64,000 bases of DNA from Candidatus Omnitrophota bacterium (GTDB lineage Bacteria; Omnitrophota; Gorgyraeia; Gygaellales; Profunditerraquicolaceae). Both the position numbers and the translations under genes were made by a program. The stretch spans positions 256,166-320,165 of the forward strand of contig JAKLGJ010000004.1 in assembly GCA_022710715.1 (NCBI GenBank), written 5' to 3'. Below the pieces are notes generated by a model, which was not told where the DNA came from, made no database searches, and was given only the letters and a program-made list of their open reading frames with translations. Shown one piece after another: positions 10,608 through 63,878 of the stretch (position 1 is the stretch's first letter; each line of letters starts with the position of its first letter).

Positions 10608-10616
10608 TGATACCAA

Positions 10617-46242: not shown

Positions 46243-46244
46243 AA

Positions 46245-47025: not shown

Positions 47026-47069
47026 ACCTTCGACTGGTGGCATTATGTTCACCTGTTGAAGGTTTTTTT
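47026..47069 (+). terminator. hairpin plus T-run (candidate terminator)
   Basis: AACCTTC...GAAGGTT with inner GGTG/CACC pairing, followed by TTTTTTT. Confidence 0.4.
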
Positions 47070-47096
47070 ATTTATAGGTAAAAATGGAGGTGTGGC

Positions 47097-47327: not shown

Positions 47328-47360
47328 TTTCGACCAGTGGATGATTTATTTGATGAATTC

Positions 47361-47513
47361 ATGGAATACGATTTTACCATGGGTGCTGATATGGTGAAAT
47401 GTCCGCATTGCGGGGCTGGTGTGCCTTGCAGTTTATTTTTTGATGATGAGGTCGAATGCCCCAAATGCGGAAAGAAGTTTCGTAAGGAAGAAGGCGAAGA
47501 TGGCAAAGCATAG
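47361..47513 (+). CDS. small zinc-ribbon protein (50 aa; not in the ORF track)
   Basis: MEYDFTMGADMVKCPHCGAGVPC...ECPKCGKKF; its stop overlaps the ATG of the next gene. Confidence 0.4.
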   Translation: MEYDFTMGADMVKCPHCGAGVPCSLFFDDEVECPKCGKKFRKEEGEDGKA

Positions 47514-48606
47514 GTCGTTTAAGCTGGAGAAATTCGTTACGGGGGTCAACAACGACCTACTCAATGCATATTTCACTCGAAAAAATGTTACGGTGCCGGA
47601 CGGCTTTGTCTTTGATCGGAATAATATTCACGATTTTCTGGATGGTATCAGCGATGATGGTAAGCGGTCTTATATCGAGGAGGAGTTGCAGTGCATCAAC
47701 GATATCGCTGACCGGGCAAGAGGTTATCTTGAGCAGGCAAAGCGTCAATATAATATAACGGTTCAGGACGATGAGCCGTCAGAAACAACCGCTATGCGGG
47801 TTTTTCTTCATAGTGAGGAAGCGTTCTCGCTCGCCTTCGATTTTTATTTGTACGTCGTTTACTCCGAAAAATTAAGCCACCATAAATTCGATCATAACAA
47901 CTGTAACGTTGCCGAGGATCGTATAGCGTTGTTAAAGAGCGCCATTGAACAGCATTTTAAAGATAGCGGCAAAAGCGAACACTGTGATGTCAGGTACCGG
48001 ACGCATAACGGCAAGCACATTGTTTTGATCGCTCATGGCGATTTCATGAAAACGCATCTTATATTTAAGGATGGGAAAGTTGATATCGACTCATTTCGCC
48101 CAGCCAGAGAGGATATGCTTGTTTTTGACACGAGGAATTGCGTGCTCAGTGTGAACGCTGGCGGCTGGAGTGAAGCTGATAAAAAACGGTATATCGAAAT
48201 ATTTGGGAACGCTATCCTTGGCATTGATCAGGTGCCGGAAGCGACGTTTAATAATACCTTGGTAATTCTCGAACCTATTAAGAACGGCACTTTTAGCTAT
48301 ACCGGCAATGATGATGTTGAGTCTGTCGATTTAACAGAGGTTAAGGTTAAATGCAGAGGTACAAAGGTCATAAAGGTTACGATTAACTGTGGCGATGTGC
48401 GACAGGCGTTTTCGGACTTAGGGATGTCTATGCAAGACGCCGAATATGTTTCAGCGAAATTACGGTTTTGCATTAAGCGTAGCGGGAAGAAGCCCAAATC
48501 AATAACGGTTGAAATCAAGCCGCCGGAGAACACAAAATTACCCGAGAAGGCGGAAAAAGAAATTATTGAAAAATATTTGCGGGACAATGGAGTACTTTTG
48601 ACGTGA
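47500..48606 (+). CDS. hypothetical protein (operon gene 2)
   Basis: Likely start MAKHRSF at 47500, about 368 aa; no family recognised. Confidence 0.5.
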   Translation: MAKHRSFKLEKFVTGVNNDLLNAYFTRKNVTVPDGFVFDRNNIHDFLDGISDDGKRSYIEEELQCINDIADRARGYLEQAKRQYNITVQDDEPSETTAMRVFLHSEEAFSLAFDFYLYVVYSEKLSHHKFDHNNCNVAEDRIALLKSAIEQHFKDSGKSEHCDVRYRTHNGKHIVLIAHGDFMKTHLIFKDGKVDIDSFRPAREDMLVFDTRNCVLSVNAGGWSEADKKRYIEIFGNAILGIDQVPEATFNNTLVILEPIKNGTFSYTGNDDVESVDLTEVKVKCRGTKVIKVTINCGDVRQAFSDLGMSMQDAEYVSAKLRFCIKRSGKKPKSITVEIKPPENTKLPEKAEKEIIEKYLRDNGVLLT

Positions 48607-49697
48607 TGATGAACTTCATATTAAAAAATATTGAGGCTTTTCCCACAGCGTCGTTCAGCGAGAGCGAGCTGGTGCGTGTTTCAAAGACTGATTTCAACTT
48701 TCTGACCAAGCAGAAATGTTTAGACCGAATGAAGTATGACTATATGAAAGAGCCTTATTATTCGTCTGCTTTGGGGGATAATGGGAACGAGCGACGGATC
48801 AAGAAGGTTGGAAGTCGATTCTGCGCATACTCAGTGGAGTCAGCGGATAGTGCGCCTATTGAGGTAACAGAAGCGGATCTGCGGCGATATCAACTTTCTT
48901 TCCCGGCTTTGTTTGCGAAAATCAGGCAGGTTAACAAGATTGAGGGAAAGTTTCAAGAAATCCCGGAAGGGTATTTTTACATAGGGTATAAGCTATACGA
49001 CAGTTTCCGGGTTGGGTTTGTTTTTGTGCCGAAGATTGGGGACGGCAAGCTGATCAAATTCGTCGGGTTAAAGGACATTTGCAAAGATGATAAGGTTCTA
49101 GTTGTTTTCACTCCATTTACGAAGATAGAGGATATTTTATTAAGCTGGGGTTTGAGCAAGTGCAAGATAGTTACGGTTCCTCTTGCGACGGCGCTTGATT
49201 TCAAAACATTCAAATTGTCGATAGATGATCTTACTAAAGAATTTATGCCTGAGGGCGGGGCTACGGCTTTGACTAAAAAGCAGGCAAAAGACTACAAGGA
49301 CTTTGACTACAAGTGTTATGATAAAATTCATATTCCGGGAACGGCTCCAATGAAGCGGAGTAATGACCTTGAGGTGAATGGGCATAAAATCAAAATGCCG
49401 GACGGGGCGTTCAAATTGTTTATTGAACTGGGTGTTGAGCTCAAGAAAGGCAAGGGCGGGTGGCTTAAAAAGGTTGTGGAAGCCGGAAAGTATCAGATTT
49501 TTGACCGGGTTCGATCGCCGCTTCAGGGCAGTTTACTGGGCAAGGATGCCAAGAAGTTTATTGAGAATAATGCATCAAAGGATTACCGTATTTCAACGCA
49601 CCCTGATTTTATAACATTCGATAAAAAGAATCTATTGAAGCACGCCAGCGCATCGGTTCAGGCGTTGGCTAAAGGACTTCCAAGGGGGAAGCGATGA
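48603..49697 (+). CDS. hypothetical protein (operon gene 3)
   Basis: 364 aa, 4-nt overlaps with both neighbours. Confidence 0.5.
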   Translation: MMMNFILKNIEAFPTASFSESELVRVSKTDFNFLTKQKCLDRMKYDYMKEPYYSSALGDNGNERRIKKVGSRFCAYSVESADSAPIEVTEADLRRYQLSFPALFAKIRQVNKIEGKFQEIPEGYFYIGYKLYDSFRVGFVFVPKIGDGKLIKFVGLKDICKDDKVLVVFTPFTKIEDILLSWGLSKCKIVTVPLATALDFKTFKLSIDDLTKEFMPEGGATALTKKQAKDYKDFDYKCYDKIHIPGTAPMKRSNDLEVNGHKIKMPDGAFKLFIELGVELKKGKGGWLKKVVEAGKYQIFDRVRSPLQGSLLGKDAKKFIENNASKDYRISTHPDFITFDKKNLLKHASASVQALAKGLPRGKR

Positions 49698-50533
49698 GCA
49701 AGGCAGTCATTAGTCGATATTTATCTCCTACTACATACGAAGCCGTGCGGAATGATTTTGTTTTCTTGATTGATAAGATTAAAGAGTCGGGTTTTGAATA
49801 CGGACTGCAGATTCGAGATGATTATTTGAATCTATATTATAAAGGTAACAGCATAGGGAAAATATCCTATAAAACTGGTCAAAAAGTTTATGAGGTAAAA
49901 ATACACCGCAAGTTTGTGGATGATTCAATTATTAAGCGTTTTTCGCCGTCGGTTGTTAAGGACTACGCTGTTTTCGTCATTCCCAGCAAGCAACTGCATC
50001 CGCTTTTTAGTTCAAAAAACTTATTGTCTATGGGGCAGAGGGTGAAGGCTGTCCAATTCCAAGAAGAAATTGTCTTTGAGCAAATGCTTTTGACTGACAA
50101 CGCTAACAGGGACGATTTAATCATTATAGATAGGCAAGTTGTTGATCGGGATCATGACACTAAAATGGATCTTCTGGCGCTTAAGCAAAAAGAGCCGGGC
50201 AAGTATCAGTTTTGTGTCATTGAGGTCAAACTTGGCAACAATCAGGAGTTGAAAGAGGACGTTTTTCAACAGCTCAAAGGATACGGTGAACGCATTACAA
50301 GAAATTTCCCTCAGTATAAAAAAAGTTACGAATTGAACTTCGCTCAAAAGCAGGGGCTTGGACTTTTGCCGGGCAGTTTGAAAATTGAAATTGTAGAAGG
50401 TGTGTTCGGCATAGTAGTGGTAGGAGGATATTCCGGTCTTGCCGAGAAAAGCATTTCTGAGCTTAAGGCAAAGCATCCCGATATAAGGGTGTTGCATATA
50501 AAAAATGAAATCAGGTTTGATAATTTGATATGA
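49694..50533 (+). CDS. PD-(D/E)xK (RecB-like) nuclease-fold protein
   Basis: D...D-x13-ExK arrangement (DTKMDLLAL...VIEVKLG) followed by QQLKGY (QxxxY-like). Confidence 0.5.
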   Translation: MSKAVISRYLSPTTYEAVRNDFVFLIDKIKESGFEYGLQIRDDYLNLYYKGNSIGKISYKTGQKVYEVKIHRKFVDDSIIKRFSPSVVKDYAVFVIPSKQLHPLFSSKNLLSMGQRVKAVQFQEEIVFEQMLLTDNANRDDLIIIDRQVVDRDHDTKMDLLALKQKEPGKYQFCVIEVKLGNNQELKEDVFQQLKGYGERITRNFPQYKKSYELNFAQKQGLGLLPGSLKIEIVEGVFGIVVVGGYSGLAEKSISELKAKHPDIRVLHIKNEIRFDNLI

Positions 50534-51822
50534 AGCTAATTATTCATAGAGGTACAGCTGAAATTGGTGGGACCTGTGTAGAGGTCTTTACGGAGAAAAG
50601 CCGGATCGTGATCGATTTCGGACTGCCGCTTGTTAATGCCAAAAAAGAACCATTTGATTCAAAGGTTTTGATAGGTAAATCTCCGGAAGAGTTGAGGGGA
50701 TTAAAAATCCTTCCTAGCGTGAGCGGCCTCTATAAAGATGAGGAGAGGTCGGTTGACGCCATTCTCATATCGCATTCTCACATGGATCACTACGGATTGC
50801 TTCGCTATGTGCACCCCGGCATACCTATATATATGAGCGAGGGTGCCAAGACGTTGGTTGAGGTGTCGGATATATTTACGCCTCACAAAACCGGCAAAAT
50901 AAATACCAAAATCATAGATAAACGAAAGAAGTTAACCATTGGGGATTTTGAAATCTTCCCTTATCTGGTAGATCACTCCGCTTTTGATGCTCTTGCTTTT
51001 ATGATTAAAGCCGATGGGAAGAAGATTTTTTACTCGGGAGATTTCAGGGGGCATGGGAGAAAAAGCGAGCTTTATAGGCGCATGGTGTCTAAGCCGCCGA
51101 AAGATATCGATTGTTTGCTTTTAGAAGGCTCGATGATCGGTCGGGGAGAGCAATTATTCAAAGATGAGCAGGCGGTGCAAGCTCGTATGGAAAAAGTCTT
51201 AAAGGCGACCCCCAATATAAAGTTTTTATTTGCCTCATCTCAGAACATTGACCGAATCGTTTCGGCGTATAAGGCTTGTCTTAAAACAAACCATGTATTC
51301 GTGATTGATATTTACACTGCGTATATTCTTGATTGTCTGAGGAAGGTATCAAAAAATATCCCGCAGTTTAATTGGAGGAATATTAGGGTTAAGTTTATGA
51401 AAAGCCATGCGGATTCATTGGCGCAGAACGCTTCAGTTAAACTTCTTTATGCTTATAACTCCCGTAAGATTGAGATTGATGAGATTAATGCGATCAAGGA
51501 TAAGGTCTTGATGCTTGCACGGGATAATTCTATTTTCCCAATACTGGTGAAGAATATTAAGGGCATAGAGGGAGCGAAGATTATCTATTCAATGTGGGAA
51601 GGATATTTGACGGATAAATTTAAGGATTTTGTCGCTCAGAAAGGGTTGGATATTGAAACCGTTCATACGAGCGGTCATGCCACCATACAGGATTTAAAGG
51701 TTTTTGCCGAAGCGTTAAATCCGGGCAAGTTGATTCCGATTCACACTTTTGAGTCTGGGCAATACCCGAAACTTTTTAGGAACGTACAAATATTACAGGA
51801 TCGGGAAGTATTTAACGTTTAA
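50530..51822 (+). CDS. metallo-beta-lactamase / beta-CASP family nuclease
   Basis: MBL motif ILISHSHMDHYG, additional D/H motifs, C-terminal beta-CASP-like HTSGHA; 430 aa. Confidence 0.8.
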   Translation: MKLIIHRGTAEIGGTCVEVFTEKSRIVIDFGLPLVNAKKEPFDSKVLIGKSPEELRGLKILPSVSGLYKDEERSVDAILISHSHMDHYGLLRYVHPGIPIYMSEGAKTLVEVSDIFTPHKTGKINTKIIDKRKKLTIGDFEIFPYLVDHSAFDALAFMIKADGKKIFYSGDFRGHGRKSELYRRMVSKPPKDIDCLLLEGSMIGRGEQLFKDEQAVQARMEKVLKATPNIKFLFASSQNIDRIVSAYKACLKTNHVFVIDIYTAYILDCLRKVSKNIPQFNWRNIRVKFMKSHADSLAQNASVKLLYAYNSRKIEIDEINAIKDKVLMLARDNSIFPILVKNIKGIEGAKIIYSMWEGYLTDKFKDFVAQKGLDIETVHTSGHATIQDLKVFAEALNPGKLIPIHTFESGQYPKLFRNVQILQDREVFNV

Positions 51823-51846
51823 GGGTAGGGTCAAGGGGAGAAAAAT

Positions 51847-53103
51847 ATGAGAGACCCGCATCAGAATATTTTCTTTTATTACCGTGGGCCCTCTAAGAAC
51901 AGGGAACTGTCATTGTATGATTTTCAGGTAGAGGATAACACGACAAAGAGCTTGATCAATGTCTTTGAATTTTGTTGCCAAGCTGGGTTCGAGGATCTAT
52001 TGAATGGTTTTTTGAAGGCGGTCAATGCCCCTAAGCGACCGGTTGCTTCCTTTAGATTACAGAAAGGGTTAGATGACAGCAGGACAGATGCCTTGATTGA
52101 TCTTGCAGATTACAATATTCATATTGAATCAAAGGTTAGGGCAAGGTTGGATATTGGTCAGATTGAGCGCCACTTAACGTCTATCGATCCGCAAGACATA
52201 TTGGTTGTTATAACGAATCATCGGCAGGATAAAGAAGAATTGAGCAGGGTTAGAGACAGGCGGCTCAGGTATTTAGATTGGGCTGAAGTACATAGAATAT
52301 GCCTGAGGGCTGGTGAGATGATCCGTAACGATAAGCGCATGGTTGCGATCCTGCATTTAATTGAGCAGTTTATTGATTACATGGAGGTTGTGGTTATGAC
52401 CGAATTTAATGGATTCAAGAACTCGGATTTTGATTTTTGGGTGGACCCGAACCCATATTATGTGCCAATTCTTCGGAAGAAGCTGGAGGCTTTGGCAACC
52501 ATTATTAAGGAAAAACTTCCACGGGATATCGGGGATGAATATTCCTTTATTAAACCCGGCAACATATCACGAAGCGGTAAAGATGAGCGGTTTGCGTGGG
52601 TAGCGATCAAAAGACCTAAGGATGGTAAGGATATATTTAATCAGTGCAATTTCACGATTGAGGTATCAAAAAGCTGTCTTGATATAAATACGGTTATTCG
52701 TAATGGCCGCACTTATCAGCCAAAGACAGCGATCGGTGTCTTTTTTAATAAAGTTTCAAATAATCCAGAGAAATTTTTGCAGGTCATCAGGGGTGTTAAA
52801 AAAGAAGCGAGGATCGTCATTTCTAAAAGGTTGCCCAAGACGGGTAAGCGTATTATGCCGGGCAATGAGAAATGGGTGAAATTTTTTGATATGAAGCTGT
52901 GTGACATAACCAGCAAGCAAGATGTTCTTTATTTATGCGAGGTATTAAAGAAGGCAGATAAAGAACCCGGGGCGCCCGGAATACACTTCAGGCGTTCAAT
53001 TGATAGGGGCTCAAAAGTGCTTACTGAGCCGGAAGCGTTGGAAACTGAAATCATAAGCACCATTACTGAGTTTAAGCCGATATTGGTCTACTTGGGGGGA
53101 TAG
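51847..53103 (+). CDS. protein with N-terminal RecB-like PD-(D/E)xK nuclease domain
   Basis: E (ENTTKSLINVFE) ... D (DALIDLAD) ... IHIESK (ExK) ... QIERHL; 418 aa. Confidence 0.45.
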   Translation: MRDPHQNIFFYYRGPSKNRELSLYDFQVEDNTTKSLINVFEFCCQAGFEDLLNGFLKAVNAPKRPVASFRLQKGLDDSRTDALIDLADYNIHIESKVRARLDIGQIERHLTSIDPQDILVVITNHRQDKEELSRVRDRRLRYLDWAEVHRICLRAGEMIRNDKRMVAILHLIEQFIDYMEVVVMTEFNGFKNSDFDFWVDPNPYYVPILRKKLEALATIIKEKLPRDIGDEYSFIKPGNISRSGKDERFAWVAIKRPKDGKDIFNQCNFTIEVSKSCLDINTVIRNGRTYQPKTAIGVFFNKVSNNPEKFLQVIRGVKKEARIVISKRLPKTGKRIMPGNEKWVKFFDMKLCDITSKQDVLYLCEVLKKADKEPGAPGIHFRRSIDRGSKVLTEPEALETEIISTITEFKPILVYLGG

Positions 53104-53140
53104 TCGAGGAAAGGGTTGGGATCGTGGATTTAGGGGGTCA

Positions 53141-53330
53141 AAACGGGCATTTTGCTGGATTTTTGCCGGTGTTGTGATAAAATACCTTTATTGTACGGCA
53201 GGGTAGTGTCGAGTGGATCCCCTAAGGATATCAGCGCTCCCATACTACGTTTACGGTAGAGTTTTATAAGTAGGCTTATTTCAAGGGGTTGTAGGGTTCG
53301 CCTACCGTCCACGACTACCCGTTTTGATAC
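53141..53330 (+). ncRNA. candidate structured non-coding RNA closed by a 10-bp long-range stem
   Basis: TCAAAACGGG (about 53141) pairs with CCCGTTTTGA (about 53320); internal complementary pairs GGGTAGT/ACTACCC, ACGGTAG/CTACCGT, GTAGG-GTTCG-CCTAC hairpin; no protein ORF. Confidence 0.3.
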
Positions 53331-53353
53331 CAAATCGAAACAATATAAAGACA

Positions 53354-53392
53354 ATAGCTGGTTTCCTTGAATGGAGGCCAGCTATTCTTTTT
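53354..53392 (+). terminator. rho-independent terminator
   Basis: ATAGCTGG-loop-CCAGCTAT followed by TCTTTTT. Confidence 0.6.
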
Positions 53393-53404
53393 ATATAATA
53401 AACT

Positions 53405-53450
53405 ATTTACACTACATTTAAATTTTTATGATATAATGTAGTGTAAAAGG
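53405..53450. promoter_or_regulatory. perfect 12-bp inverted repeat operator flanking a -10-like element
   Basis: TTTACACTACAT-N20(TATGATATAAT)-ATGTAGTGTAAA immediately upstream of 53459; a half-site ATGTAGTGTA recurs at about 54448. Confidence 0.55.
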
Positions 53451-53458
53451 AGAATAAG

Positions 53459-53764
53459 ATGAGAATCCTTCAGGGGATATTGTCAGAGAGCAAGGAATAT
53501 TATCAAGACTTAAAGAAGAAAATAGCGAAGAAATTGTTGGTTCTCCCTAGGGGGAGTATTAAAGAAAGGGTGATCGCAGGGAAGAAGTACTATTATTTGC
53601 AGTATCGCAAAGCGGAAAAAATAGTGCAGAAGTATTTAGGCCGGCAAAAACCCGAGGTTCTCACAAAGCAGATAAAGGAACGCGGAATCTTAAAAGAGGA
53701 ACTCAAAAAGGTGAATGAAGCTTTGAAAATCATCATAAGATCCGAAGGCAGAAAACATGTTTGA
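53459..53764 (+). CDS. small basic protein, putative antitoxin/regulator of the downstream nucleotidyltransferase
   Basis: 101 aa, 8-nt overlap with the downstream gene. Confidence 0.4.
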   Translation: MRILQGILSESKEYYQDLKKKIAKKLLVLPRGSIKERVIAGKKYYYLQYRKAEKIVQKYLGRQKPEVLTKQIKERGILKEELKKVNEALKIIIRSEGRKHV

Positions 53765-54443
53765 ATCCATTAAAAGGATTTTAACAGTTTTTGCCGACAA
53801 TGAGCTGTTTGAGGAGGGAGTTGAACTTATAGGCAGTTGGTGTTTTAGTCTATACCAACAACACCTCGGCGCAAAAGAATTCCCTTTGATGACGCAAGAT
53901 ATCGATTTTCTGATCCCCAGCCCTTTTCATGGCAAAGAGCATTTGGGTTTCATTAAACAGTTGGAAGATTTAGGTTTTCAGCCTGATTTCAAGAGAGATG
54001 GATCTCTTTTTCTTTGGAATTCTGAGTTAAAAATAGAGTTTATAACCACCGAGAAGGGTGCGGGAACCGATAAGGCAATTAAGATCAAGAAATTAGGCAT
54101 AGATGCTATACCCCTAAGGCATGTTGGTTTTTTATTGGAGGATCCCATTACTATTATTGATAAAGGCATCAAGATAACTGTTCCGGCGCCGGAGCGTTTT
54201 TGTCTTCAAAAGCTTATCATTGCCCCAAGAAGAAGAAAAATAGAAAAGAGATTAAAGGATATACAGCAAGCTGTCTGTACTTCTGTAATTGTTGATTCGA
54301 AGGAAATAAGGGATTTATTCCGATCTTTACCTGCGAAATGGCGTCGAGATGTGTTGAGGATGCTTGAGGTGGCTAAGACAGAATTGCCGTTGTTGAGAGA
54401 AGATGTAGAAAAACTGGTTCTTACACTACAACATGATAAATAA
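53757..54443 (+). CDS. pol-beta superfamily nucleotidyltransferase, AbiEii/DUF1814-like
   Basis: hG[GS]...DhD motif: LIGSWCFSLYQQ...TQDIDFLI resembles GGTAL...SxDLDF of AbiEii-type toxins. Confidence 0.55.
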   Translation: MFESIKRILTVFADNELFEEGVELIGSWCFSLYQQHLGAKEFPLMTQDIDFLIPSPFHGKEHLGFIKQLEDLGFQPDFKRDGSLFLWNSELKIEFITTEKGAGTDKAIKIKKLGIDAIPLRHVGFLLEDPITIIDKGIKITVPAPERFCLQKLIIAPRRRKIEKRLKDIQQAVCTSVIVDSKEIRDLFRSLPAKWRRDVLRMLEVAKTELPLLREDVEKLVLTLQHDK

Positions 54444-54476
54444 TAAATAATGTAGTGTAGACCGTGAAGTGTTGAA

Positions 54477-54977
54477 TCATTTTAGATAATTGCGATATTT
54501 GAGCGCGTTTCTAACAGTTTTTCGATTCACTTTTATAATTCTGGCTATTGTTTTCAAAGGCGTACCCAAAAAGTGCAATTCTTCTATTTTTGGGGCTAAT
54601 TTTTGATGTAATGGGGTTGCGGTAGGTTCTAAAATGATGGTAACTTGGACTTCGGAAGCGGTTCGAATTGGTAGCAGACGCGTCCGTTTTATTGGGGAAT
54701 CGAGTTCCGCTGAGTAAGGGGCGGAGTCGTCTCTACAATATGGATAAAGAAGTGAGCGTAGGTATAGGGCAGAGAAGATCAAAAGGCGTGTTCTTCTTTG
54801 CCTTGCTGGAATTCGTGGGAACAACACAATTCCTGCGGATGTACTCTGTGGATTTTGACAGTCCCGTCGCGCAATCCTTCCCCCATTTTCGGACCATACT
54901 GTGGATCTATGTATTGTTAATCTCGGTTGTATCGCCTGTTTGTGGAATAGGATTGTTGCTGTTGAAGGAGTGGGCAA
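54477..54977 (-). pseudogene. degenerate transposase remnant (HTH only)
   Basis: C-terminal GTPLKTIARIIKVNRKTVRNALK resembles a transposase HTH; the rest is low-complexity Arg/Pro-rich. Confidence 0.3.
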
Positions 54978-55180: not shown

Positions 55181-55433
55181 TGCCCAAAACGTGCCCATTT
55201 TAGTGAAAAACATCGGGTAACAAAGGGAACAATCGGGAAACATCCAGACTCCCTGTTTCTCCGTTTTTGATTTTTGTACCGAGAAGAAGCATAACAACAA
55301 GTATCAAGCCATTTCAAGATATGACAATATCTCTGAAGTGGCTTTTTTATTCTTTCTGCCGAAAACGATTGACATGGGGGGCGGGTGTGATAAACTTATT
55401 ATGAACATATGTTCATAACGAAAGAGGATGATT

Positions 55434-55739
55434 ATGCGTCCCAAGAAGACCCGATGGGTCAAATGCGTCCCCGGCGAAAGGTGTTTCAAACCCATGTGCA
55501 AGCCTTTAAGCAAGGTTAAAGTCGTATGCCTGTCGCTTGATGAATTCGAAGCGGTGCGGCTTGCCTGTCTTGAAGGATTGAAACAAATAGACGCCGCAAA
55601 GCTGATGAAGGTCTCGCGGCCGACTTTTTCCCGGATTTTGACCTCTGCCCAGCAAAAGGTGGCTGATGGACTGGTCAATATCAAGGCAATCCGTATTGAA
55701 GGCGGGTGTTGCCAGATCAGGAGGGGGATCAAAAAATGA
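55434..55739 (+). CDS. DUF134 (UPF0251) family predicted DNA-binding protein
   Basis: PKKTRWVKCVPGERCFKPMCKP ... sigma-r4-like HTH (EFEAVRLACLEGLKQIDAAKLMKVSRPTFSRIL). Confidence 0.7.
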   Translation: MRPKKTRWVKCVPGERCFKPMCKPLSKVKVVCLSLDEFEAVRLACLEGLKQIDAAKLMKVSRPTFSRILTSAQQKVADGLVNIKAIRIEGGCCQIRRGIKK

Positions 55740-56908
55740 AAGCATGGAAGAAGTTCCTGTATAGTACCGTTATCTTTCTGGGTTGTTTCTATCTGCCGGT
55801 AGAGAATATGCGTTTTAACAATGCGGTTTTTGAAGCGCTTGCTTTGGTTAAATGGTACGCGCGTGAGCATGTGTTATTGTGTCTGGTGCCGGCATTCTTT
55901 ATTGCCGGGGCGATCTCGGTATTCGTCAGCCAGGCGTCAGTGTTAAAATATTTCGGCGCTAAAGCCAATAAATTTCTCTCTTACAGCGTGGCTGCGGTTT
56001 CCGGCACCATATTGGCGGTGTGTTCTTGTACGGTGTTGCCGCTTTTCGGGGGCATTTATAAAAGAGGGGCGGGACTCGGGCCTGCCAGCGCTTTCCTTTA
56101 TTCCGGGCCGGCCATCAATGTTCTTGCGATCATTCTTACTGCGCGGATCTTAGGCTGGCAGCTGGGCCTGGCCAGAGCTATCGGCGCCGTGGTTTTCAGC
56201 GTGGTGATCGGTTTATTGATGCATCTGATCTTTTATAAGGAAGAGTGCAGCCGTCAGGCATGCGGTGATTTTAACGCGGGTCAAGCGAAAGAACCGCGTT
56301 CATTGGGGCAGACGGTTTTGTATTTTGCTTCTCTGGTCGCTATCCTGGTATTCGCGAACTGGGGGAAACCGCTGGAAGGCGATCAGGGTATCTGGGCGCT
56401 TATTTATCAGTATAAATGGTGGATCACCGGCGTGTCTTCAGTCAGCCTCGCGGTCATGCTGGGCAGATGGTTCAAAAAAGAGGAATTAAAAGACTGGACG
56501 CAATCCACCTGGGGATTTGCTCTGCAGATCCTGCCGCTTCTGCTTGGAGGAGTGCTGGTCTCCGGGTTCCTCCTGGGCAGAGTAGGTCATGAGGGCGTCA
56601 TTCCGTCGCGTTTTGTGGTCGCGTTAGTCGGCGGCAATTCCGTGTGGGCTAATTTCTTTTCCGCGATTGTCGCGACGTTCATGTATTTTGCCACGCTTAC
56701 CGAAGTGCCGATCCTGCAGGGGTTGATGAATGCCGGCATGGGCAAAGGACCGGCATTGGCGTTGTTGCTGGCAGGGCCTGCGTTGAGCCTGCCGAGCATG
56801 CTGGTGTTGCGCAGCATTTTGGGGACGAGAAAGACCGTTGTATACGTCGTCCTCGTGGTGATGATGGCTACGTTTTCGGGAATGCTTTTTGGTTTTATCG
56901 CAAAGTAG
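55733..56908 (+). CDS. DUF318/ArsP-like permease (putative organoarsenical efflux)
   Basis: Multi-TM; conserved CSC in [12 protein letters not shown] as in the ArsP (TPFCSC) family; likely start MKAWKKF. Confidence 0.65.
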
Positions 56909-56916
56909 GAGGAGAT

Positions 56917-57747
56917 ATGGAAGGAAAAGACATCAAGAAAATGGTCAAAGAAGGGTATGCTAAAGTCGCCAGGCAGAATGTTTCCTGCTGCTCTGCCGGT
57001 TGTTCGTGCGCGGGCGCACCGCAGGCGAAAGATATCAGTAAAATCGTCGGATACAGCGAGTCTGAAATGAACGCCGTTCCCGAGGGTGCCAATCTTGGTC
57101 TGGGTTGCGGCAATCCCGTCGCTATCGCCTCGCTCAAAGAGGGGGAGGTCGTATTGGATCTGGGCAGCGGCGCGGGATTCGACGCTTTCCTCGCCTCGCC
57201 GAAAGTCGGGAAAACAGGGAAGGTTATCGGCGTTGATATGACCGAAGAAATGATCGAGAAAGCCAGGCGGAACGCCCGGAAAAGCGATTATGCCAACGTG
57301 GAATTCAGATTGGGCGAGATCGAGCGACTGCCGGTGGATAGCGCGTCGGTGGATGCGATCATTTCAAATTGCGTGATCAATCTTTCTCCGGATAAAGAGA
57401 GCGTTTTTAAAGAAGCGTACCGGGTGCTGAAGCCCGGAGGCAGATTGATGGTCTCGGATCTGGTTTTGACCGGAAAACTGCCGGCGCTGATCAAGGATTC
57501 TGTTGAGGCTTATGTGGGATGCCTGGCCGGCGCGGCAATGAAAGAAGAGTACCTCGGGTTTATAGAAAAAGCCGGCTTCAAAGATATAAAAGTCGTCAGC
57601 CAGACGCATTACCCGATAGAAGCTATGGCAAATGACGCAACGGCGCAGGCAGTCATGGGTGATGCGAAGATCAGTAAGCAGGATATGAAAGCGCTGGAGA
57701 AAGCCGTGGTCAGCGTGAAGGTTCTGGCATTCAAGCCCGAACGCTGA
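56917..57747 (+). CDS. arsM: arsenite S-adenosylmethionine methyltransferase
   Basis: N-terminal Cys pairs ([11 protein letters not shown]), AdoMet motif [11 protein letters not shown], further Cys (CVINLS, GCLAG) typical of ArsM. Confidence 0.85.
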
Positions 57748-57761
57748 TCCTCAAGAATATC

Positions 57762-58448
57762 ATGGAAAAGAAGATAAGAAAAATCAAAGTGTCTGAAAAG
57801 TATCCTCCTGAAGAGGGCTGTTATCTGCGAGGCAACGATTTCTCTCCTGTCGCGGTAGCGGTGATCTTAAAATGGAGAAGGGACGAGGTCCCCGAATCGA
57901 TCGAACAGCTTGTAAGAGTCGGATTGGAAAGCGGCGCCGCATTGTCGGGAACACTGCAGACCGAGAATGTGGGGTTGGAAAAAGTGATCTGCAATATCAT
58001 AGCGAACCCGAATATCAGATATCTGGTCGTGTGCGGACCTGAATCCCCGGGGCATCTGGTGGGAGAAAGTATCAACGCATTATATAAGAACGGGATAGAC
58101 GCGCATAAAAGAATAATCGGGACAGGCGCCCCGGCGCCATTCCTGTTCAATATCCCATCGGAATGGATAGACAGATTGAGAAAACAGACCCGGCTCATTG
58201 ATCTCACCAATGAGGGATCTCCTGACGTCATACGGGAAGCCGTGTGGTCATGTTATCAGGAGGAGCCGGTCAAATTCAAAGAGTATGAGCTTTTCGACAC
58301 CGGGGCTTTTGAGGAAGAACCCATATGCGGAAAAATTACATGGAGGGTTACAAACCCGGCGTATGCGCCTAAGGACGAGAAAGAACAAGCAGCGCTTGAA
58401 AAGATGCAGGCTCTGATAAAGAAACTCAAGCAGAGAGGTAAAAAATGA
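57762..58448 (+). CDS. MtrA-like protein (homologue of tetrahydromethanopterin S-methyltransferase corrinoid subunit A, soluble form)
   Basis: SPVAVAVIL...TENVGLEKVICNIIANPNIRYLVVCGPESPGHLVGESINALYKNGID closely matches the conserved MtrA core; no C-terminal TM helix. Confidence 0.7.
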   Translation: MEKKIRKIKVSEKYPPEEGCYLRGNDFSPVAVAVILKWRRDEVPESIEQLVRVGLESGAALSGTLQTENVGLEKVICNIIANPNIRYLVVCGPESPGHLVGESINALYKNGIDAHKRIIGTGAPAPFLFNIPSEWIDRLRKQTRLIDLTNEGSPDVIREAVWSCYQEEPVKFKEYELFDTGAFEEEPICGKITWRVTNPAYAPKDEKEQAALEKMQALIKKLKQRGKK

Positions 58449-58693
58449 AGATAGAGATTTTAGGAGCCGGTTGTCCCAAATGCCATAGCACCGAGGCTAA
58501 TGTGCGCAAGGCGCTTGCGGAGTTGAATAAAACCGCTGAAGTGGTCGAGGTGACCGATATCATGGCTATCATTGATAAAGGCGTGATCCAGACGCCGGGT
58601 TTGATCATCAACGGGAAGATCATTATGCAAGGGAAGATCCCTACCGTTGAACAGATAAAACAGTTTATTCAGAAGGAGGAAGGCAATGGGTAA
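58445..58693 (+). CDS. thioredoxin-fold redox-active disulfide protein 2
   Basis: 82 aa, MKIEILGAGCPKCHS with CPKC active site; family commonly paired with CcdA-like proteins. Confidence 0.75.
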   Translation: MKIEILGAGCPKCHSTEANVRKALAELNKTAEVVEVTDIMAIIDKGVIQTPGLIINGKIIMQGKIPTVEQIKQFIQKEEGNG

Positions 58694-58949
58694 TTATGGG
58701 GAGTGGAAAGGCGTGCCGCGGGAAAATATACCCTGGTATCCCAGGGTTGATCTGGATAAATGCGTTGGGTGCAGGGAATGTTTTAAATTCTGCCGGCACA
58801 AGGTATATACGTGGGATAAGGATAACAATAAGACAAAAGTGGCCGAGCCGTTTCATTGTGTCGTAGGCTGCAGCAACTGCGCGGGGGTTTGCAAGGAAGG
58901 CGCGATCTCGTTCCCGCCTTTGACCATGCTTAAGGATTTTGCAAAATAA
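58686..58949 (+). CDS. 2x[4Fe-4S] ferredoxin
   Basis: CVGCRECFKFC and CVVGCSNCAGVC motifs. Confidence 0.8.
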   Translation: MGNYGEWKGVPRENIPWYPRVDLDKCVGCRECFKFCRHKVYTWDKDNNKTKVAEPFHCVVGCSNCAGVCKEGAISFPPLTMLKDFAK

Positions 58950-58961
58950 TCAGGGGGAAAA

Positions 58962-59372
58962 ATGAAGAAACCGATTGTTTTAGTGCTTGTTTTGATCCTC
59001 ATGACGGCTGCCGTCAGCCCGGCGGCGCCTCAAAACAAGGTCGTTGCCTATTATTTCCACGGGAACGCCCGCTGCTATACCTGCCGCACTATGGAACAGT
59101 ACTCGAAGGAAGCGCTCGAGACGAACTTCAAGGATGCGTTAGCCGCCGGGAAGCTGGAATTCAAAGCGGTGAATGTGGAAGAGCGGGAGAATGAACATTT
59201 CGCTCAAAAGTATCAGCTGTACACAAAATCCCTGGTGTTATCCCTGGTTAAAGACGGGAAAGAGATCAGATCGAAAAATCTCGCCGGGATCTGGGACCAT
59301 GTCCGGAACAAACGGAGATTCTTCGATTATGTAACTGAAGAAGTATCCGATTTCCTGAAGGAAATACAATGA
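58962..59372 (+). CDS. secreted CxxC thioredoxin-like protein (ArsF-like small ars-operon protein)
   Basis: Signal peptide, CYTC motif; position between the ferredoxin and the CcdA-like gene. Confidence 0.5.
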   Translation: MKKPIVLVLVLILMTAAVSPAAPQNKVVAYYFHGNARCYTCRTMEQYSKEALETNFKDALAAGKLEFKAVNVEERENEHFAQKYQLYTKSLVLSLVKDGKEIRSKNLAGIWDHVRNKRRFFDYVTEEVSDFLKEIQ

Positions 59373-60058
59373 CCGATATTGTGATCGGCCTGGGATCAGC
59401 TTTATGGCTGGGCATTATGACGTCTATCAGCCCGTGTCCGCTGGCTACCAACGTGGCAGCGATATCCTTTCTGGCTAAAAAGGTGATCCATCCCCGGTCA
59501 GTGTTGCTTTCCGGCATCGCTTATACTGCCGGCAGGATGGTATCCTATGCCGCGCTGGGGGTTATCCTGATCAATTCGATCTTAAGTATCCCTCAAGTAG
59601 CGCAGTTCCTGCAGAAATATATGCCGCAGGCTCTCGGCCCTCTTTTGATCGTTACCGGATTGGTCCTGTTGGAAATAATCAAACTGAACCTGCCGGGCGT
59701 GTTCCTTTCCCGGCAACATCGCAGCAGGCTGGTCGAGGCCGGAGTACCGGGGGCTTTTCTTTTAGGCGTTATTTTTGCGCTCGCCTTTTGCCCGCTTTCC
59801 GCGGCGTTATTCTTCGGGAGCCTTATCCCGCTGGCAATTCATTACAAAAGCGGGATTATTTTTCCGTCCATTTACGGTGTTGGTACGGGGTTGCCGGTTC
59901 TCGTATTTGCCATAGCGATCGCCCTGGGGGTGACGTCATTAAGCCGGTGGTTCAATAAAATTACGCGTATAGAATATTATGCCCGGAAAATTACCGGAGT
60001 CACATTTATCATTGTGGGGTTGTATTATGCGGGGGTTTATATTCTGAAGCTGTTTTAA
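59369..60058 (+). CDS. CcdA/DsbD-family transmembrane thiol-disulfide transfer protein
   Basis: Two Cys-Pro motifs in TM helices (ISPCPLAT; AFCPLSAALFFG), about 6 TM. Confidence 0.7.
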   Translation: MTDIVIGLGSALWLGIMTSISPCPLATNVAAISFLAKKVIHPRSVLLSGIAYTAGRMVSYAALGVILINSILSIPQVAQFLQKYMPQALGPLLIVTGLVLLEIIKLNLPGVFLSRQHRSRLVEAGVPGAFLLGVIFALAFCPLSAALFFGSLIPLAIHYKSGIIFPSIYGVGTGLPVLVFAIAIALGVTSLSRWFNKITRIEYYARKITGVTFIIVGLYYAGVYILKLF

Positions 60059-60070
60059 AAAGGGGGGAAG

Positions 60071-61111
60071 GTGGAACAACTTGCGAAGAAGCTGTCGTTT
60101 TTAGACAGATTCCTGACTTTATGGATATTTCTGGCTATGGCTGCGGGAGTTTTATCCGGATATTTTTTCCCCGGAGTAGTCGGCTTCTGGCATCGGTTCC
60201 AGGCGGGAACAACCAATATTCCCATTGCCGTCGGATTGATCCTGATGATGTACCCGCCTCTGGCCAAAGTGAAATACGAAGAACTGGGGGATGTATTCCG
60301 TGATTATAAGATCCTCGGTCTTTCTCTGGCGCAGAACTGGATCGTGGGCCCCATAGTGATGTTCGTTCTGGCCGTGTTGTTCTTAAGGGGGTACCCGGAT
60401 TACATGGTCGGTCTGATCATGATCGGGCTTGCCCGGTGTATAGCGATGGTTATTGTATGGAATGAGCTGGCTCAAGGCGATACTGAATATTGCGCGGGGT
60501 TGGTGGCGTTTAACTCCATCTTCCAGGTTTTGTTTTATTCCGTATACGCATGGGTTTTCATCACTGTTATCCCGACCTGGTTCGGGCTTCGCGGGGTCGC
60601 GGTCAATATAACCATAGGTCAGATCGCGCAAAGCGTGTTCATTTATCTGGGGGTTCCTTTTATTGCCGGCATTGTCAGCCGGTTTTCGCTGATCCGGCTC
60701 AAGGGCAAAGAGTGGTATGAAAAGAAGTTCATCCCGAAGATCAGCCCTGTTACCCTGATCGCGCTCCTGTTCACCATTGTGGTCATGTTCTCTTTGAAGG
60801 GCGGATACATCGTGCGGATCCCGCTCGATGTGGTGAGAATCGCCATCCCGCTTTTGATCTACTTTGTGGCTATGTTCCTGATTTCTTTTTATATGGGGTA
60901 TAAATTCAAAGCCGGCTACGCCAAAACCGCGACTTTGTCGTTCACCGCTGCCAGCAATAACTTTGAGCTCGCTATCGCGGTAGCGGTCGCCGTATTCGGA
61001 ATCAATTCCGGCGCGGCTTTTGCCGCGGTGATCGGACCTCTGGTTGAAGTTCCGGTGCTGATAAGCCTGGTGAACGTGGCGGCGTTTTTCAAAAAGAAGT
61101 TTCAATATTGA
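60071..61111 (+). CDS. acr3: arsenite efflux transporter, ACR3 family
   Basis: [21 protein letters not shown]...[24 protein letters not shown] is the canonical ACR3 N-terminus; 346 aa, 10 TM. Confidence 0.9.
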
Positions 61112-61184: not shown

Positions 61185-62150
61185 ATGAAAAAGAAAATCC
61201 GCTTTCTGGCAGTGACGGCAGGTGTAGTTATTCTCATCCTGGGTTTCGCTTGCGCTGAACCGGTCAAGGATGGTTACGGCAAAGCGCAGTTGCCGGACAG
61301 CTCCGTCTATGAGGGGAATTTCAAGAACGGCCTTTTCGACGGCAAGGGAACGATGGTGTGGCGGAACGGAGATAGATATGAAGGCGATTTCAAAAACGGC
61401 TTATTCAACGGTAAGGGGATTTCCGTAAGACGCAACGGGGATGCGTATGAAGGCGAATTCAAGGACGGATTGATGGAAGGAAAGGGCATTTATAGCCGGG
61501 TCAATGGGGACAGATACGAAGGAGAAATGAAAGAGGGATACTTTTCCGGAAAAGGGACGCTTAAATTGGGTGACCGGGGCAGTTATGAGGGAGAGTTTAA
61601 AGACGGGGAGATCACCGGCAGAGGGAAAATGACGTATGCTGACGGCACGATCGTCGAAGGAATGTTCAAAAGGGGAATGGCCGAAGGAATGGTAACGATC
61701 CACAACCCGGAATATACCTATGAAGGTGAGTTCAGAAAGAATGTATTCAACGGAAAAGGAAAAGCGACGTATGCCAACGGCACTACCGTGGAGGGGAATT
61801 TTATCAATGGGCGTCTGGAAGGGGCCGGGCGTTACAAGCAGGGGAACGGGGATGCCTATGAAGGCGAGTTCAAAAATGGCCTTTTCGACGGCAAAGGAGT
61901 TTTGAGCTATAGCAACGGGGATAAATATGAAGGCAGGTTCGAAAACAATTACTTTAATGGCCGGGGAAAATATACCACCCGTGAAGGGTTTATATATGAA
62001 GGCAGCTTCAAGGACTCAAAATATGACGGGGAAGGAACGTTGACCTGCCCTGCCGATTGTAAGGATTGTCCGCAGAAGGTGACAAGAGGCATCTGGAAAA
62101 AAGGAAAGCTTTTTGTCGACTTTGATAAGACCCCGCGCGCGAAAAAATAG
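61185..62150 (+). CDS. MORN-repeat lipoprotein
   Basis: Lipobox LGFAC; at least 12 tandem YEGEFKNGxxxGKG MORN repeats. Confidence 0.8.
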   Translation: MKKKIRFLAVTAGVVILILGFACAEPVKDGYGKAQLPDSSVYEGNFKNGLFDGKGTMVWRNGDRYEGDFKNGLFNGKGISVRRNGDAYEGEFKDGLMEGKGIYSRVNGDRYEGEMKEGYFSGKGTLKLGDRGSYEGEFKDGEITGRGKMTYADGTIVEGMFKRGMAEGMVTIHNPEYTYEGEFRKNVFNGKGKATYANGTTVEGNFINGRLEGAGRYKQGNGDAYEGEFKNGLFDGKGVLSYSNGDKYEGRFENNYFNGRGKYTTREGFIYEGSFKDSKYDGEGTLTCPADCKDCPQKVTRGIWKKGKLFVDFDKTPRAKK

Positions 62151-62243: not shown

Positions 62244-63878
62244 ATGAAGCACGATGAGGAATTTTATCGCACGTTGTTCGAGGTCACCGGCACCGGTTTT
62301 GTGGCGCTGGACGGTGAAGGCAAAGTGATCGAGGCGAATGAGGAATATGTGCGCCTTACCGGTCACGCGGATCTTTCAAAGATAATCGGCCGGTCGGTGC
62401 TGGAATGGACTGTTGAACGCGATAAAGAATATAATCTTAACGCTCTCAAGCAGTGCCGCGAGCAGGGCAAGGTCAATAATCTCGAGATAGAATATGCCTG
62501 TCCCGATGGCCGGATCGTTTCCGTGGAAGTCAATGCCACGCTTTTTCATCAAGAAGGCGCCGCGCCTCTGATCCTGGGGCTGTGCCGCGATGCAACCGAA
62601 AGTCGAAAAAAGGATACCGCACTGAAGGAAGAGACTGCCCGGAGGCGCATTTTATTCGAACAATCGCCTGACGGGATACTGATTATCGATCCGCCTACGG
62701 CGCGGTTCTTGGAATTCAATACCGCCGCGCATCAACAACTGGGATATTCGCGCGAAGAATTTGAGCGGTTGAGCATAGCCGATGTCGAGGTGATAGAGAC
62801 TTTCGAAGAAACCCGTCAGCACATCGCAAAGGTGATCAAAGAGGGAAAAGCCGATTTTGACACGCTGCAACGCACTAAAACAGGGGAACGTCGCAATGTC
62901 CACGTGACCGCCCAGATTATGGAGATCATGGGGAAACCTGCGTATGTGTGCACCTGGCGGGATATTACCGCCCGCAAGCAGACAGAAGCCGCTTTACTGG
63001 TATCTGAAGAAAGATTTCGGAATGTCGTGGAGTCGTCGCCGACGGCAATGTATTTCTATCGCCTGGAAGCCGACGGCCGCCTGATTTTGACCGGCGCGAA
63101 TGAGTCGGCCGATCGTATCATCGGCATCAAGCATCAACCCCTCATCGGCAAAACCATAGAAGAAGCATTTCCCAATCTTATGCCTACCGAAGTTCCCGCG
63201 ATGTATCGCAAAGTAGCTAAAGGTGAGACAGGGCCGCAATCGTTCGAGATACCCTATCAGGATGAACGGTTCCGGGGGTATTATCAGGTGCATGTATTCC
63301 GCACCGGCACGCAAACGATAGCGGTCGATTTCACGGATATTTCCGACAGAAGAAGGGTGGAAGAAGCGTTGCGCGAGAAAACGGCCTTGCTGGAGTCGCA
63401 GATGGAGGCGGATCTCGACGCATTGATCGTGGTAGATGCCCATCAGCAGCGTATCCTGGCTAACCAGCGTTTCTTCGCTCTATTCAAAGTTCCCGATCAT
63501 ATCGCCCAGGATAAGGATGACAACGCCCTGTTGCAGTATGTGGTGGAGAAAACCAAATACCCCAGGCAGTTCCTGGAAAAAGTACAGTATTTGTACGCCC
63601 ATCCCGACCAGACCAGCCGGGACGAGATCGAATTCAAGGATGGGATGATCCTGGATCGATATTCCTCGCCGGTCGTGGACAAGAGCGGGAAATATTGCGG
63701 CCGTATCTGGAGTTTTCGCGATATTACCGAGAACAAGAAAACCGAAGCCAGGTTGAGAGAGAAGCTGCAGGAACTGGAAACGTTCAACCGGTTTGCCGTG
63801 GACCGGGAACTGAAAATGATCGAGCTTAAAGAGCAGATCGTGAAACTGGAGGAAAAACTTCAAGCCAGGGCGTTATGA
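62244..63878 (+). CDS. multi-PAS domain sensor protein without recognisable output domain
   Basis: At least three PAS-like modules; C-terminal coiled coil; no HisKA/HATPase or GGDEF motifs. Confidence 0.7.
   Translation: MKHDEEFYRTLFEVTGTGFVALDGEGKVIEANEEYVRLTGHADLSKIIGRSVLEWTVERDKEYNLNALKQCREQGKVNNLEIEYACPDGRIVSVEVNATLFHQEGAAPLILGLCRDATESRKKDTALKEETARRRILFEQSPDGILIIDPPTARFLEFNTAAHQQLGYSREEFERLSIADVEVIETFEETRQHIAKVIKEGKADFDTLQRTKTGERRNVHVTAQIMEIMGKPAYVCTWRDITARKQTEAALLVSEERFRNVVESSPTAMYFYRLEADGRLILTGANESADRIIGIKHQPLIGKTIEEAFPNLMPTEVPAMYRKVAKGETGPQSFEIPYQDERFRGYYQVHVFRTGTQTIAVDFTDISDRRRVEEALREKTALLESQMEADLDALIVVDAHQQRILANQRFFALFKVPDHIAQDKDDNALLQYVVEKTKYPRQFLEKVQYLYAHPDQTSRDEIEFKDGMILDRYSSPVVDKSGKYCGRIWSFRDITENKKTEARLREKLQELETFNRFAVDRELKMIELKEQIVKLEEKLQARAL

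Follow-up and report, generated by a model that had tools for sequence, protein, structure and literature searches.

An MtrA-like, predicted cobamide-binding protein conserved in bacterial arsenic resistance operons

The MtrA-like gene, its product and its operon

The window analyzed here, a 64,000-nucleotide (nt) stretch of contig JAKLGJ010000004.1 from Candidatus Omnitrophota (assembly GCA_022710715.1), carries an arsenic resistance (ars) operon of nine genes, all located on the plus strand from 55428 to 61111 (Table 1). One of them (57762-58448) encodes a homologue of MtrA, subunit A of the methanogen methyl-tetrahydromethanopterin (methyl-H4MPT):coenzyme M methyltransferase Mtr. Genes of the clade to which this MtrA-like protein belongs were found in ars operons of many phyla, and the protein is predicted to bind a cobamide. 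What is new is the setting: a family already known to bind this cofactor has a conserved place in a different functional context, suggesting a B12-dependent step in arsenic detoxification that has not been described so far.

Judged by its sequence, the product of 57762-58448 is a member of the MtrA family, and it is predicted to adopt the MtrA-type Rossmann-like fold. The Pfam model MtrA (PF04208) matches residues 9-174 with 134.1 bits (cut-off 25), and the NCBIfam subfamily NF002126 is matched with 175 bits, above its cut-off of 161. HMMER alignment yielded 5LAA, a cytoplasmic MtrA homologue of Methanothermus fervidus, as the best sequence match in the PDB (E 6.6e-38), followed by 8Q3V, the MtrA of the Methanothermobacter Mtr complex (E 3.2e-34). 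An AlphaFold2 model with a mean predicted local distance difference test score (pLDDT) of 72 and a predicted template modelling score (pTM) of 0.70, weak at loops 17-25, 60-69 and 192-201, was compared with known structures using Foldseek. Here, 5LAA and 5L8X were the top PDB matches, with E ~1e-12 and target-normalised template modelling (TM) scores of 0.80-0.84 (0.83 for 5LAA). The first-pass annotation, a model's reading of the DNA letters, had described a 228-amino-acid (aa) open reading frame (ORF) matching the MtrA core without its C-terminal membrane anchor. Both statements were confirmed. The motifs quoted there align in the PDB matches, and the Kyte-Doolittle mean over 19 residues reaches a maximum of only 1.12, with -0.18 in the last 60 aa, compared to 2.3-2.8 obtained by the same measure for the C-terminus of canonical MtrA representatives; we therefore conclude that the protein has no membrane anchor.

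The MtrA-like protein cannot be regarded as subunit A of an Mtr complex. It stays below the cut-off of the equivalog model for true MtrA (TIGR01111, 122 bits versus 249), has no hydrophobic C-terminus, is encoded among ars neighbours and has no mtr genes in its operon, which together exclude a genuine Mtr subunit. An identical protein from a Candidatus Omnitrophota metagenome-assembled genome (MAG) is on record under the public label 'tetrahydromethanopterin S-methyltransferase subunit A'. With the MtrA of Mtr (PF04208, 8Q3V, 5L8X) the protein has in common the Rossmann-like fold, here predicted, and the unusual cobalamin site, the His ligand, its Glu partner and the Thr, Asn and Tyr contacts to the nucleotide tail being kept in both. 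In contrast to that MtrA, it lacks the C-terminal transmembrane helix, is not found beside mtrB-H, and is a bacterial protein of ars operons. It is further distinguished by three marks of its clade: a 13-residue insertion (residues 38-50) overlapping the N-terminal part of an extra modelled helix (45-56), a cysteine (Cys77) replacing an Ala of true MtrA, and a conserved soluble C-terminal extension of ~50 residues (178-228) which ends in a predicted helix (206-227).

The protein and 5LAA are both soluble and single-domain, 5LAA being cobalamin-bound whereas cobalamin binding is here predicted. The cytoplasmic paralogues of methanogens comprise 170-180 aa and are 60-97% identical to true MtrA (PMC4915002); unlike the MtrA-like clade, they possess neither the insertion nor the extension. 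Bacterial MtrA homologues with a mostly conserved His84 have been mentioned, function, context and ars linkage not being given (PMC4915002, 2016).

The structure of 5LAA with cobalamin allows the cofactor site to be traced. His84, which forms a hydrogen bond with Glu54, serves as lower axial ligand, Asn55 contacts a propionamide, and Thr53, Gly57 and Asn64 hold the nucleotide tail, while the dimethylbenzimidazole is sandwiched by Tyr18 and Val61 and the backbone amides of Asp17, Lys52 and Ile111 add further contacts (PMC4915002). In the HMMER alignment the corresponding residues are H98 (His84), E68 (Glu54), N69 (Asn55), T67 (Thr53), G71 (Gly57), N78 (Asn64), Y21 (Tyr18) and V75 (Val61), and the backbone positions fall on C20 (Asp17), Q66 (Lys52) and A125 (Ile111). 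Thus, every cobalamin-contacting side chain of 5LAA is kept, including the axial histidine and its glutamate partner. T67, E68 and H98 do not vary among 81 sequences of the clade, and N78 is replaced by Asp in a single case; Tyr or Phe occupies position 21, and Asn or Ser position 69. Loss of the residues needed for corrinoid binding, which had been named beforehand as an outcome that would speak against the corrinoid proposal, was consequently not seen, and we predict that the MtrA-like protein binds a cobamide in the His-on form. The only invariant cysteines in these 81 sequences are C77 and C164, the latter common to true MtrA; Cys20 is present in 56 of them and otherwise replaced by Arg, His or Gln, and Cys91 is variable.

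Within the operon, 14 nt separate the arsM stop codon from the start of the MtrA-like gene, whose TGA overlaps the ATG of arsE (ATGA, 58445-58448), and the end of arsE in turn overlaps the ferredoxin gene by 8 nt. Since these stop/start and 8-nt overlaps link the three genes, the MtrA-like, arsE and ferredoxin genes are probably translated as a unit. The neighbours listed in the first-pass annotation (arsM before; thioredoxin-like, ferredoxin, CcdA-like and ACR3 genes after) were all recovered by family matches, and the list could be extended: arsF lies between the ferredoxin gene and the 'CcdA-like' gene, the latter encodes ArsG, and genes for an ArsP_1 permease and a DUF134 protein precede arsM.

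Table 1: Features of the ars operon in the window.
Feature	Positions	Strand	Basis or remarks
Promoter-like site, TTGACA-16-TAAACT with TG	55369..55396	+	consensus scan only, 10/12 matches
DUF134 helix-turn-helix protein, putative regulator at the operon head	55428..55739	+	PF02001, 74 bits
ArsP_1-family permease (family of the methylarsenite efflux pump ArsP)	55706..56908	+	PF03773, 257 bits
ArsM, S-adenosylmethionine (SAM)-dependent arsenite methyltransferase	56917..57747	+	NCBIfam NF008823, 363 bits (cut-off 263)
MtrA-like soluble corrinoid-binding protein (predicted)	57762..58448	+	228 aa, ATG start, TGA stop
ArsE-type thioredoxin-like protein, CxxC	58445..58693	+	TIGR00412, 92 bits (cut-off 62)
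Ferredoxin, 87 aa, two 4Fe-4S motifs	58686..58949	+	Fer4 families
ArsF-family protein, N-terminal signal-like peptide, CxxC	58962..59372	+	NF040494, 114 bits (cut-off 60)
ArsG-family membrane protein, CcdA/DsbD-like	59369..60058	+	NF040495, 281 bits (cut-off 200); PF13386
Acr3 arsenite efflux transporter	60071..61111	+	TIGR00832, 463 bits (cut-off 283)

The promoter-like site lies ~30 nt 5' of the DUF134 gene and is a possible operon promoter, a consensus match alone not being evidence of function. The DUF134 protein carries an N-terminal Cys-containing motif and stands where ArsR is usually encoded, and the DUF134-permease pair recurs in another Omnitrophota locus (L004); the protein may represent a new type of arsenic-responsive regulator. 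Between 58445 and 60058, the cytoplasmic thioredoxin-like ArsE, ArsF with its signal-like peptide and CxxC motif, and the CcdA/DsbD-like ArsG together look like a transmembrane thiol-reducing relay. This appearance differs from the published naming of ArsEFG as 'nitroreductase plus efflux permease'. No cobalamin riboswitch or other Rfam family was detected in the window at gathering thresholds.

Conserved ars linkage in related loci

To place the window gene among its relatives, one genome per GTDB species was scanned using an alignment of 19 homologues as query, which yielded 282 loci. The best 80 of these, encoding proteins with 56-79% identity to the window protein, were analyzed; all but one (L042) are labelled MAG in their record titles. 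A simple gene caller missed the MtrA-like gene in 14 loci, probably the GC-rich ones. Context counts were thus derived from tblastn, in which ars families were located with thresholds of our own choice, using the ars proteins of the window as well as ArsR, ArsC and ArsD from neighbour clusters.

In 65 of the 80 loci, a core ars gene lies no more than 5 kb from the MtrA-like gene and on its strand, and in 58 there are two or more such genes. Within this distance, Acr3 and ArsR were each detected in 40 loci, ArsE in 35 and an ArsP-type permease in 29, followed by ArsC and ArsM (21 each), ArsF (16) and ArsG (12). The density of ars genes drops ~20-fold, from 7.5 per 10 kb in the first 1 kb next to the MtrA-like gene to 0.3 at a distance of 9-10 kb, and 111 of the 112 ars genes within 1 kb share its strand. 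According to record titles, loci with ars linkage come from at least 16 phylum-level groups, most of them known from anoxic habitats: Omnitrophota, Planctomycetota, Acidobacteriota, Chloroflexota, Bacillota, Sumerlaeota, Aerophobetes, Armatimonadota, Nitrospirota, Actinomycetota, Verrucomicrobiota, Lentisphaerae, Zipacnadia, Fraserbacteria, Bipolaricaulota and unclassified bacteria. The high proportion of linked loci, the decay with distance, the same-strand bias and the number of phyla show that the ars linkage of the MtrA-like clade is conserved and not due to chance. Strong enrichment of MtrA-like genes of this clade near ars genes was thereby established; its absence had been named in the first-pass annotation as an outcome that would refute the idea. 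In addition, three independent contigs with precomputed Pfam labels repeat the ars context, for example in the order ArsR-ArsP_1-MtrA-CMD-ArsM-Acr3-Trx-DGC-Trx-DsbD. Fifteen of the 80 loci showed no ars genes on the same strand; seven of these form a subclade of their own (Arg/Gln20, Gly91), several others are short contigs, and one (L040) carries ArsR and ArsE on the opposite strand.

The immediate neighbours of the MtrA-like gene vary: ArsE was found in this position in 16 loci, Acr3 in 14, ArsM in 13, an ArsP-type permease and ArsC in 11 each and ArsR in seven. Acr3 is the commonest downstream neighbour, and the commonest upstream neighbour is the ArsP-type permease, which directly precedes the MtrA-like gene in 10 loci, often with a gap of ~4 nt. 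Eight loci hold Acr3 without ArsM, ArsP-type permease or ArsC, and there are minimal ArsR-MtrA-like-Acr3 arrangements such as that of L013. The gene is therefore linked to ars operons in general, without a fixed partner, and behaves like the stand-alone accessory enzymes of these operons. The earlier proposal had deduced a role in arsenic methylation or demethylation from the adjacency to arsM. This adjacency is real in the window; however, it is not general, as only 21 of the 80 loci have ArsM at a distance of up to 5 kb and the minimal operons do without it, and arsM was consequently rejected as the specific partner in general. The overall pattern is best explained by the recruitment of an MtrA-like gene as a stand-alone ars-operon accessory gene, mostly in MAG lineages typical of anoxic habitats.

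Full-text literature searches, with most subscription journals outside their coverage, returned no paper linking the MtrA family to ars operons; the matches concerned other proteins named MtrA (a Shewanella cytochrome and an actinobacterial regulator) or were coincidental.

Proposed function and alternative explanations

Methylation and demethylation govern the toxicity and mobility of arsenic in anoxic soils, sediments and rice paddies, and the only enzymes known there are the SAM-dependent ArsM and the O2-requiring lyase ArsI. Recent reviews of these processes name only ArsM, ArsI and a side reaction of MtaA/methylcobalamin (including PMC10579292). ArsI needs O2 and no anaerobic counterpart is known, and the mechanism by which dimethylated arsenic (DMAs) is demethylated 'remains unclear' (PMC10579292). 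ArsM and ArsI make and break the As-CH3 bond, respectively, and both are encoded by stand-alone accessory genes which shuffle among ars operons as the MtrA-like gene does; the folds and cofactors of ArsM (SAM) and of ArsI (an Fe(II)/O2 C-As lyase) are, however, unrelated to those of the MtrA-like protein.

Our tentative preference is that the bound cobamide exchanges a methyl group with arsenic, cycling between Co(I) and methyl-Co(III). We favour methyl exchange because this cycling is the only chemistry known for the family, in which the methyl group is passed to a soft nucleophile (PMC4915002), and because methylcobalamin-dependent methylation of arsenic has been described; reviews treat the latter as a side reaction of methanogens, with reference to Thomas 2011 and Wuerfel 2012. 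Cobalt oxidized adventitiously to Co(II) would be returned to Co(I) by low-potential electrons, which might come from the co-encoded ferredoxin, from thiol-redox proteins or from housekeeping donors. In the direction of demethylation, Co(I) would take the methyl group from methylated arsenic, probably pentavalent or thiolated, and As(III) would be released for Acr3. In the direction of methylation, methyl-Co(III) would transfer its methyl group to thiol-bound As(III), and the product would be exported by ArsP. We lean slightly towards O2-independent demethylation, taken by itself a doubtful proposition, as the gene occupies the 'ArsC slot' in minimal operons, Acr3 is the commonest gene downstream, ArsP is frequent and anoxic demethylation has no known enzyme. 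Methylation ranks second and appears rather unlikely: it has chemical precedent, but would be redundant with ArsM and dangerous in operons without ArsP. In its broadest form, namely that the clade represents an unrecognised, widespread ars gene for a cobamide-dependent, O2-independent enzyme making or breaking the As-methyl bond in anaerobes, the proposal is possible, and we hold it with a little more reserve than methyl exchange as such.

Support for a redox-active corrinoid comes from three findings. In one family representative (P0135), a 2x[4Fe-4S] ferredoxin is fused to the MtrA-like domain. In a Chloroflexia MAG (L040), the gene for a RACo-type activator with linker, middle and ASKHA domains (PF17650, PF17651, PF14574; 8283-9656, minus strand) divergently adjoins the MtrA-like gene (9995-10729, plus strand). 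Finally, P0109 (L082:8001-8702), which is 64% identical to the window protein, is encoded between acsB and acsC in a CODH/ACS-CFeSP-RACo-CooC-AcsE cluster. The suggestion made at the outset that ferredoxin or thioredoxin keeps the cobalt reduced thus gained indirect support from the P0135 fusion and the RACo of L040, and from the translational coupling in the window. An acs or Wood-Ljungdahl setting was rejected as the general context, since P0109 is the only instance and it is absent from the 80 genome loci. The surroundings of the L040 gene include, on the opposite strand, ArsR, ArsE, a TauE-type exporter and a DGC-OsmC protein.

Similar requirements are met in the three-component corrinoid methyltransferases and in the corrinoid iron-sulfur protein (CFeSP) with RACo/RamA, which cycle between Co(I) and CH3-Co(III) and need reductive reactivation; the RACo neighbour in L040 and the acs context of P0109 provide a link to these systems. 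Their corrinoid fold differs from that of MtrA, however, the methyltransferase components MT1/MT2 were not seen alongside the MtrA-like gene (no dedicated search was made), and an activase was found in one of 80 loci. The nearest conceptual parallel is HgcA/HgcB, a corrinoid protein and a 2[4Fe-4S] ferredoxin which methylate Hg(II). This is an analogy only and not homology, as HgcA combines a CFeSP-type domain with a Cys-on cap helix and a membrane domain, whereas the MtrA-like protein matches only MtrA models. HgcB was indeed the top NCBIfam match of the window ferredoxin, but a weak one (34.8 bits, far below the cut-off of 99), and a ferredoxin is not a constant neighbour of the clade.

Several observations weigh against methyl exchange with arsenic. 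Known corrinoid proteins act between two methyltransferases, and no such partner was seen here. MtrH, MtaA/B, AcsE-type, URO-D and Pterin_bind proteins were not found in the window operon or in the Pfam-labelled ars contexts, and no methyltransferase partner appeared among the recurrent neighbour families of the 80 loci, a dedicated search not having been made. A cobamide route looks redundant beside ArsM, which methylates As(III) with SAM. If Co(I) attacked a methyl group bound to As(III), the leaving group would be a poor one, and no methyl sink, as required for demethylation, is encoded nearby. A ferredoxin was found in only ~8 of 80 loci and RACo in one. According to the alignment, Cys77 and Cys20 map beside the nucleotide-tail pocket and not on the upper face of the corrin. 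Furthermore, confidence in the model is moderate (pLDDT 72) and low in the cofactor loops, and a seven-member subclade (Arg/Gln20, Gly91) from Methanosarcinales, Desulfobacterota and Nitrospirota is never ars-linked. An As(III) thiol site built from clade cysteines was also considered and appears unsupported: invariance is confined to C77 and C164, C20 and C77 lie next to residues of the nucleotide-tail pocket, and as the latter two map away from the reactive upper face, the protein seems to have no obvious As(III)-binding thiol site.

The lack of a visible methyltransferase partner, among the recurrent neighbours and in the Pfam-labelled contexts (again without a dedicated search), would also be expected if the cobamide transferred no methyl group at all. 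By analogy, it might act in its Co(I) state as a ferredoxin-reduced two-electron reductant or nucleophile on arsenic, converting pentavalent inorganic or organic arsenic to trivalent forms for Acr3, ArsP or ArsG, or As(III) to volatile arsine. Reductive dehalogenase and QueG would be the models for such a reductase, and the P0135 fusion resembles the layout of an Fe-S and cobamide reductase. It would also fit the 'ArsC slot' of minimal operons, as 28 of the 40 Acr3 loci have no ArsC within 5 kb (counted by hand), and a paper on hydride generation by cob(I)alamin (Wuerfel 2012) is cited in the review literature. We nevertheless consider this explanation improbable. Methyl transfer is the only chemistry known for the MtrA family, 21 of the 80 loci also carry ArsC, 11 of them in the adjacent position, where the reductase would be redundant, and cheap thiol-based arsenate reductases already exist whereas no such cobamide enzyme is known.

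A similarly low probability is assigned to corrinoid housekeeping under arsenic stress, in which the protein would buffer, protect or deliver cobamide without transforming arsenic. It could, for example, keep cobamide away from As(III), so that no toxic methylarsenite is formed by accident, or resupply cobamide enzymes, its gene being co-regulated with the ars genes. Such a role would account for P0109, which at 64% identity stands in a corrinoid and not an arsenic context, for the missing obligate ars partner, neighbours varying among ArsP, ArsE, Acr3, ArsM, ArsC and ArsR, and for the missing arsenic-binding thiol cluster. However, the acs context was met once compared to the ars context in 65 of 80 loci, the cobamide chaperones known so far belong to other families, and the high conservation (56-75% identity across phyla) together with carriage in ars operons suggests a direct benefit against arsenic. 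Even a housekeeping role would add a new type of accessory function to ars operons, and it would also correct the misleading automatic label 'tetrahydromethanopterin S-methyltransferase subunit A' in bacterial genomes.

The frequent position directly behind an ArsP-type permease gene (10 loci, commonest upstream neighbour, gap often ~4 nt) raises the question of a physical partnership, in which the corrinoid domain would dock to the permease via an amphipathic C-terminal helix and couple cobamide chemistry to organoarsenical export. The conserved extension with its predicted helix 206-227 would be in agreement with docking, and MtrA is a membrane-complex subunit in Mtr (PMC4915002). Nevertheless, 51 of the 80 loci have no ArsP-type permease within 5 kb, and ArsP_1 is not homologous to MtrC/D/E, so that the idea is pure analogy and in our view very unlikely. 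Least credible of all is a degenerate or hitch-hiking gene which has lost cofactor binding or has a function other than in arsenic metabolism and is carried by mobile ars islands: the window operon does lie near a prophage and a low-GC restriction-modification island, and as all related loci but L042 are labelled MAG no phenotype is known, but the cofactor positions show little or no variation, strong purifying selection acts on the sequence, and hitch-hiking does not account for a synteny that extends over at least 16 phylum-level groups with varied gene orders.

If the proposal holds true in its broadest form, the MtrA-like protein would take the place of the anaerobic counterpart to ArsI or ArsM that has been missing so far and would provide an enzymatic basis for methylcobalamin-dependent arsenic methylation and for anoxic demethylation in sediments and paddy soils. 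It would tie arsenic detoxification to the availability of cobamides in anoxic communities, in parallel to the unexplained arsenic link of the Hg-methylating corrinoid protein HgcA. The gene represents a concrete, clonable candidate for a B12-dependent arsenic reaction, conserved in the ars operons of many phyla.

Further gene contexts and surroundings of the operon

Additional proteins were noticed in ars loci carrying an MtrA-like gene. Four loci of Planctomycetota encode, three to six genes downstream, a protein of 470-480 aa composed of an N-terminal hydrophobic segment, a thioredoxin domain and an alkylmercury lyase domain (MerB, PF03243, 66 bits), as in L080:11423-12844 and L005:13871-15334 (both plus strand). 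This thioredoxin-MerB protein could be an O2-independent carbon-metal(loid) lyase of ars operons. In five loci, the MtrA-like gene is directly preceded by a gene for an FMN_red/iron-sulfur-flavoprotein-like product carrying a Tat-like signal and a compact Cys motif; the locus checked is from Sedimentisphaerales (Planctomycetota; L005:9068-9784, plus strand).

More distant relatives combine the MtrA domain with other domains. In a clade of 38-46% identity, it is joined to a thymidylate-synthase-like domain (P0158, P0165, P0166, P0170 and P0180). Three further proteins (P0126, P0128 and P0129) carry a Cys-rich C-terminal domain of ~190 aa without a Pfam match, and P0128 shows a weak N-terminal match to TusA. 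The only relative in a plasmid collection was a distant one, a 458-aa 'DUF4346' protein on Planococcus plasmids containing a region of ~40% identity to the window protein, with no ars context, represented by positions 464-1840 of the Planococcus kocurii plasmid NZ_CP013660.2 (L081). Based on this similarity, the DUF4346 proteins on Bacillota plasmids appear to be relatives of the MtrA fold.

In the window itself, acr3 is followed on its 3' side by genes for a secreted MORN-repeat protein (61185-62150) and a multi-PAS sensor protein (62244-63878), for which no operon link was established. A prophage-like region (~8800-43000) starts beside a tRNA-Ser gene (8719-8806), with all genes on the plus strand and a strong GC skew, and encodes an SNF2 helicase, a primase-polymerase/D5 protein, a ParB-methylase, terminase gpA, a lambda-type portal and tail protein J. 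It is followed by a low-GC island (~43700-54500, 33-43% GC) with an Eco57I-type N6 DNA methylase and several ORFs without a family match. Since this island lies between the prophage and the ars operon, the operon borders a mobile or variable region.

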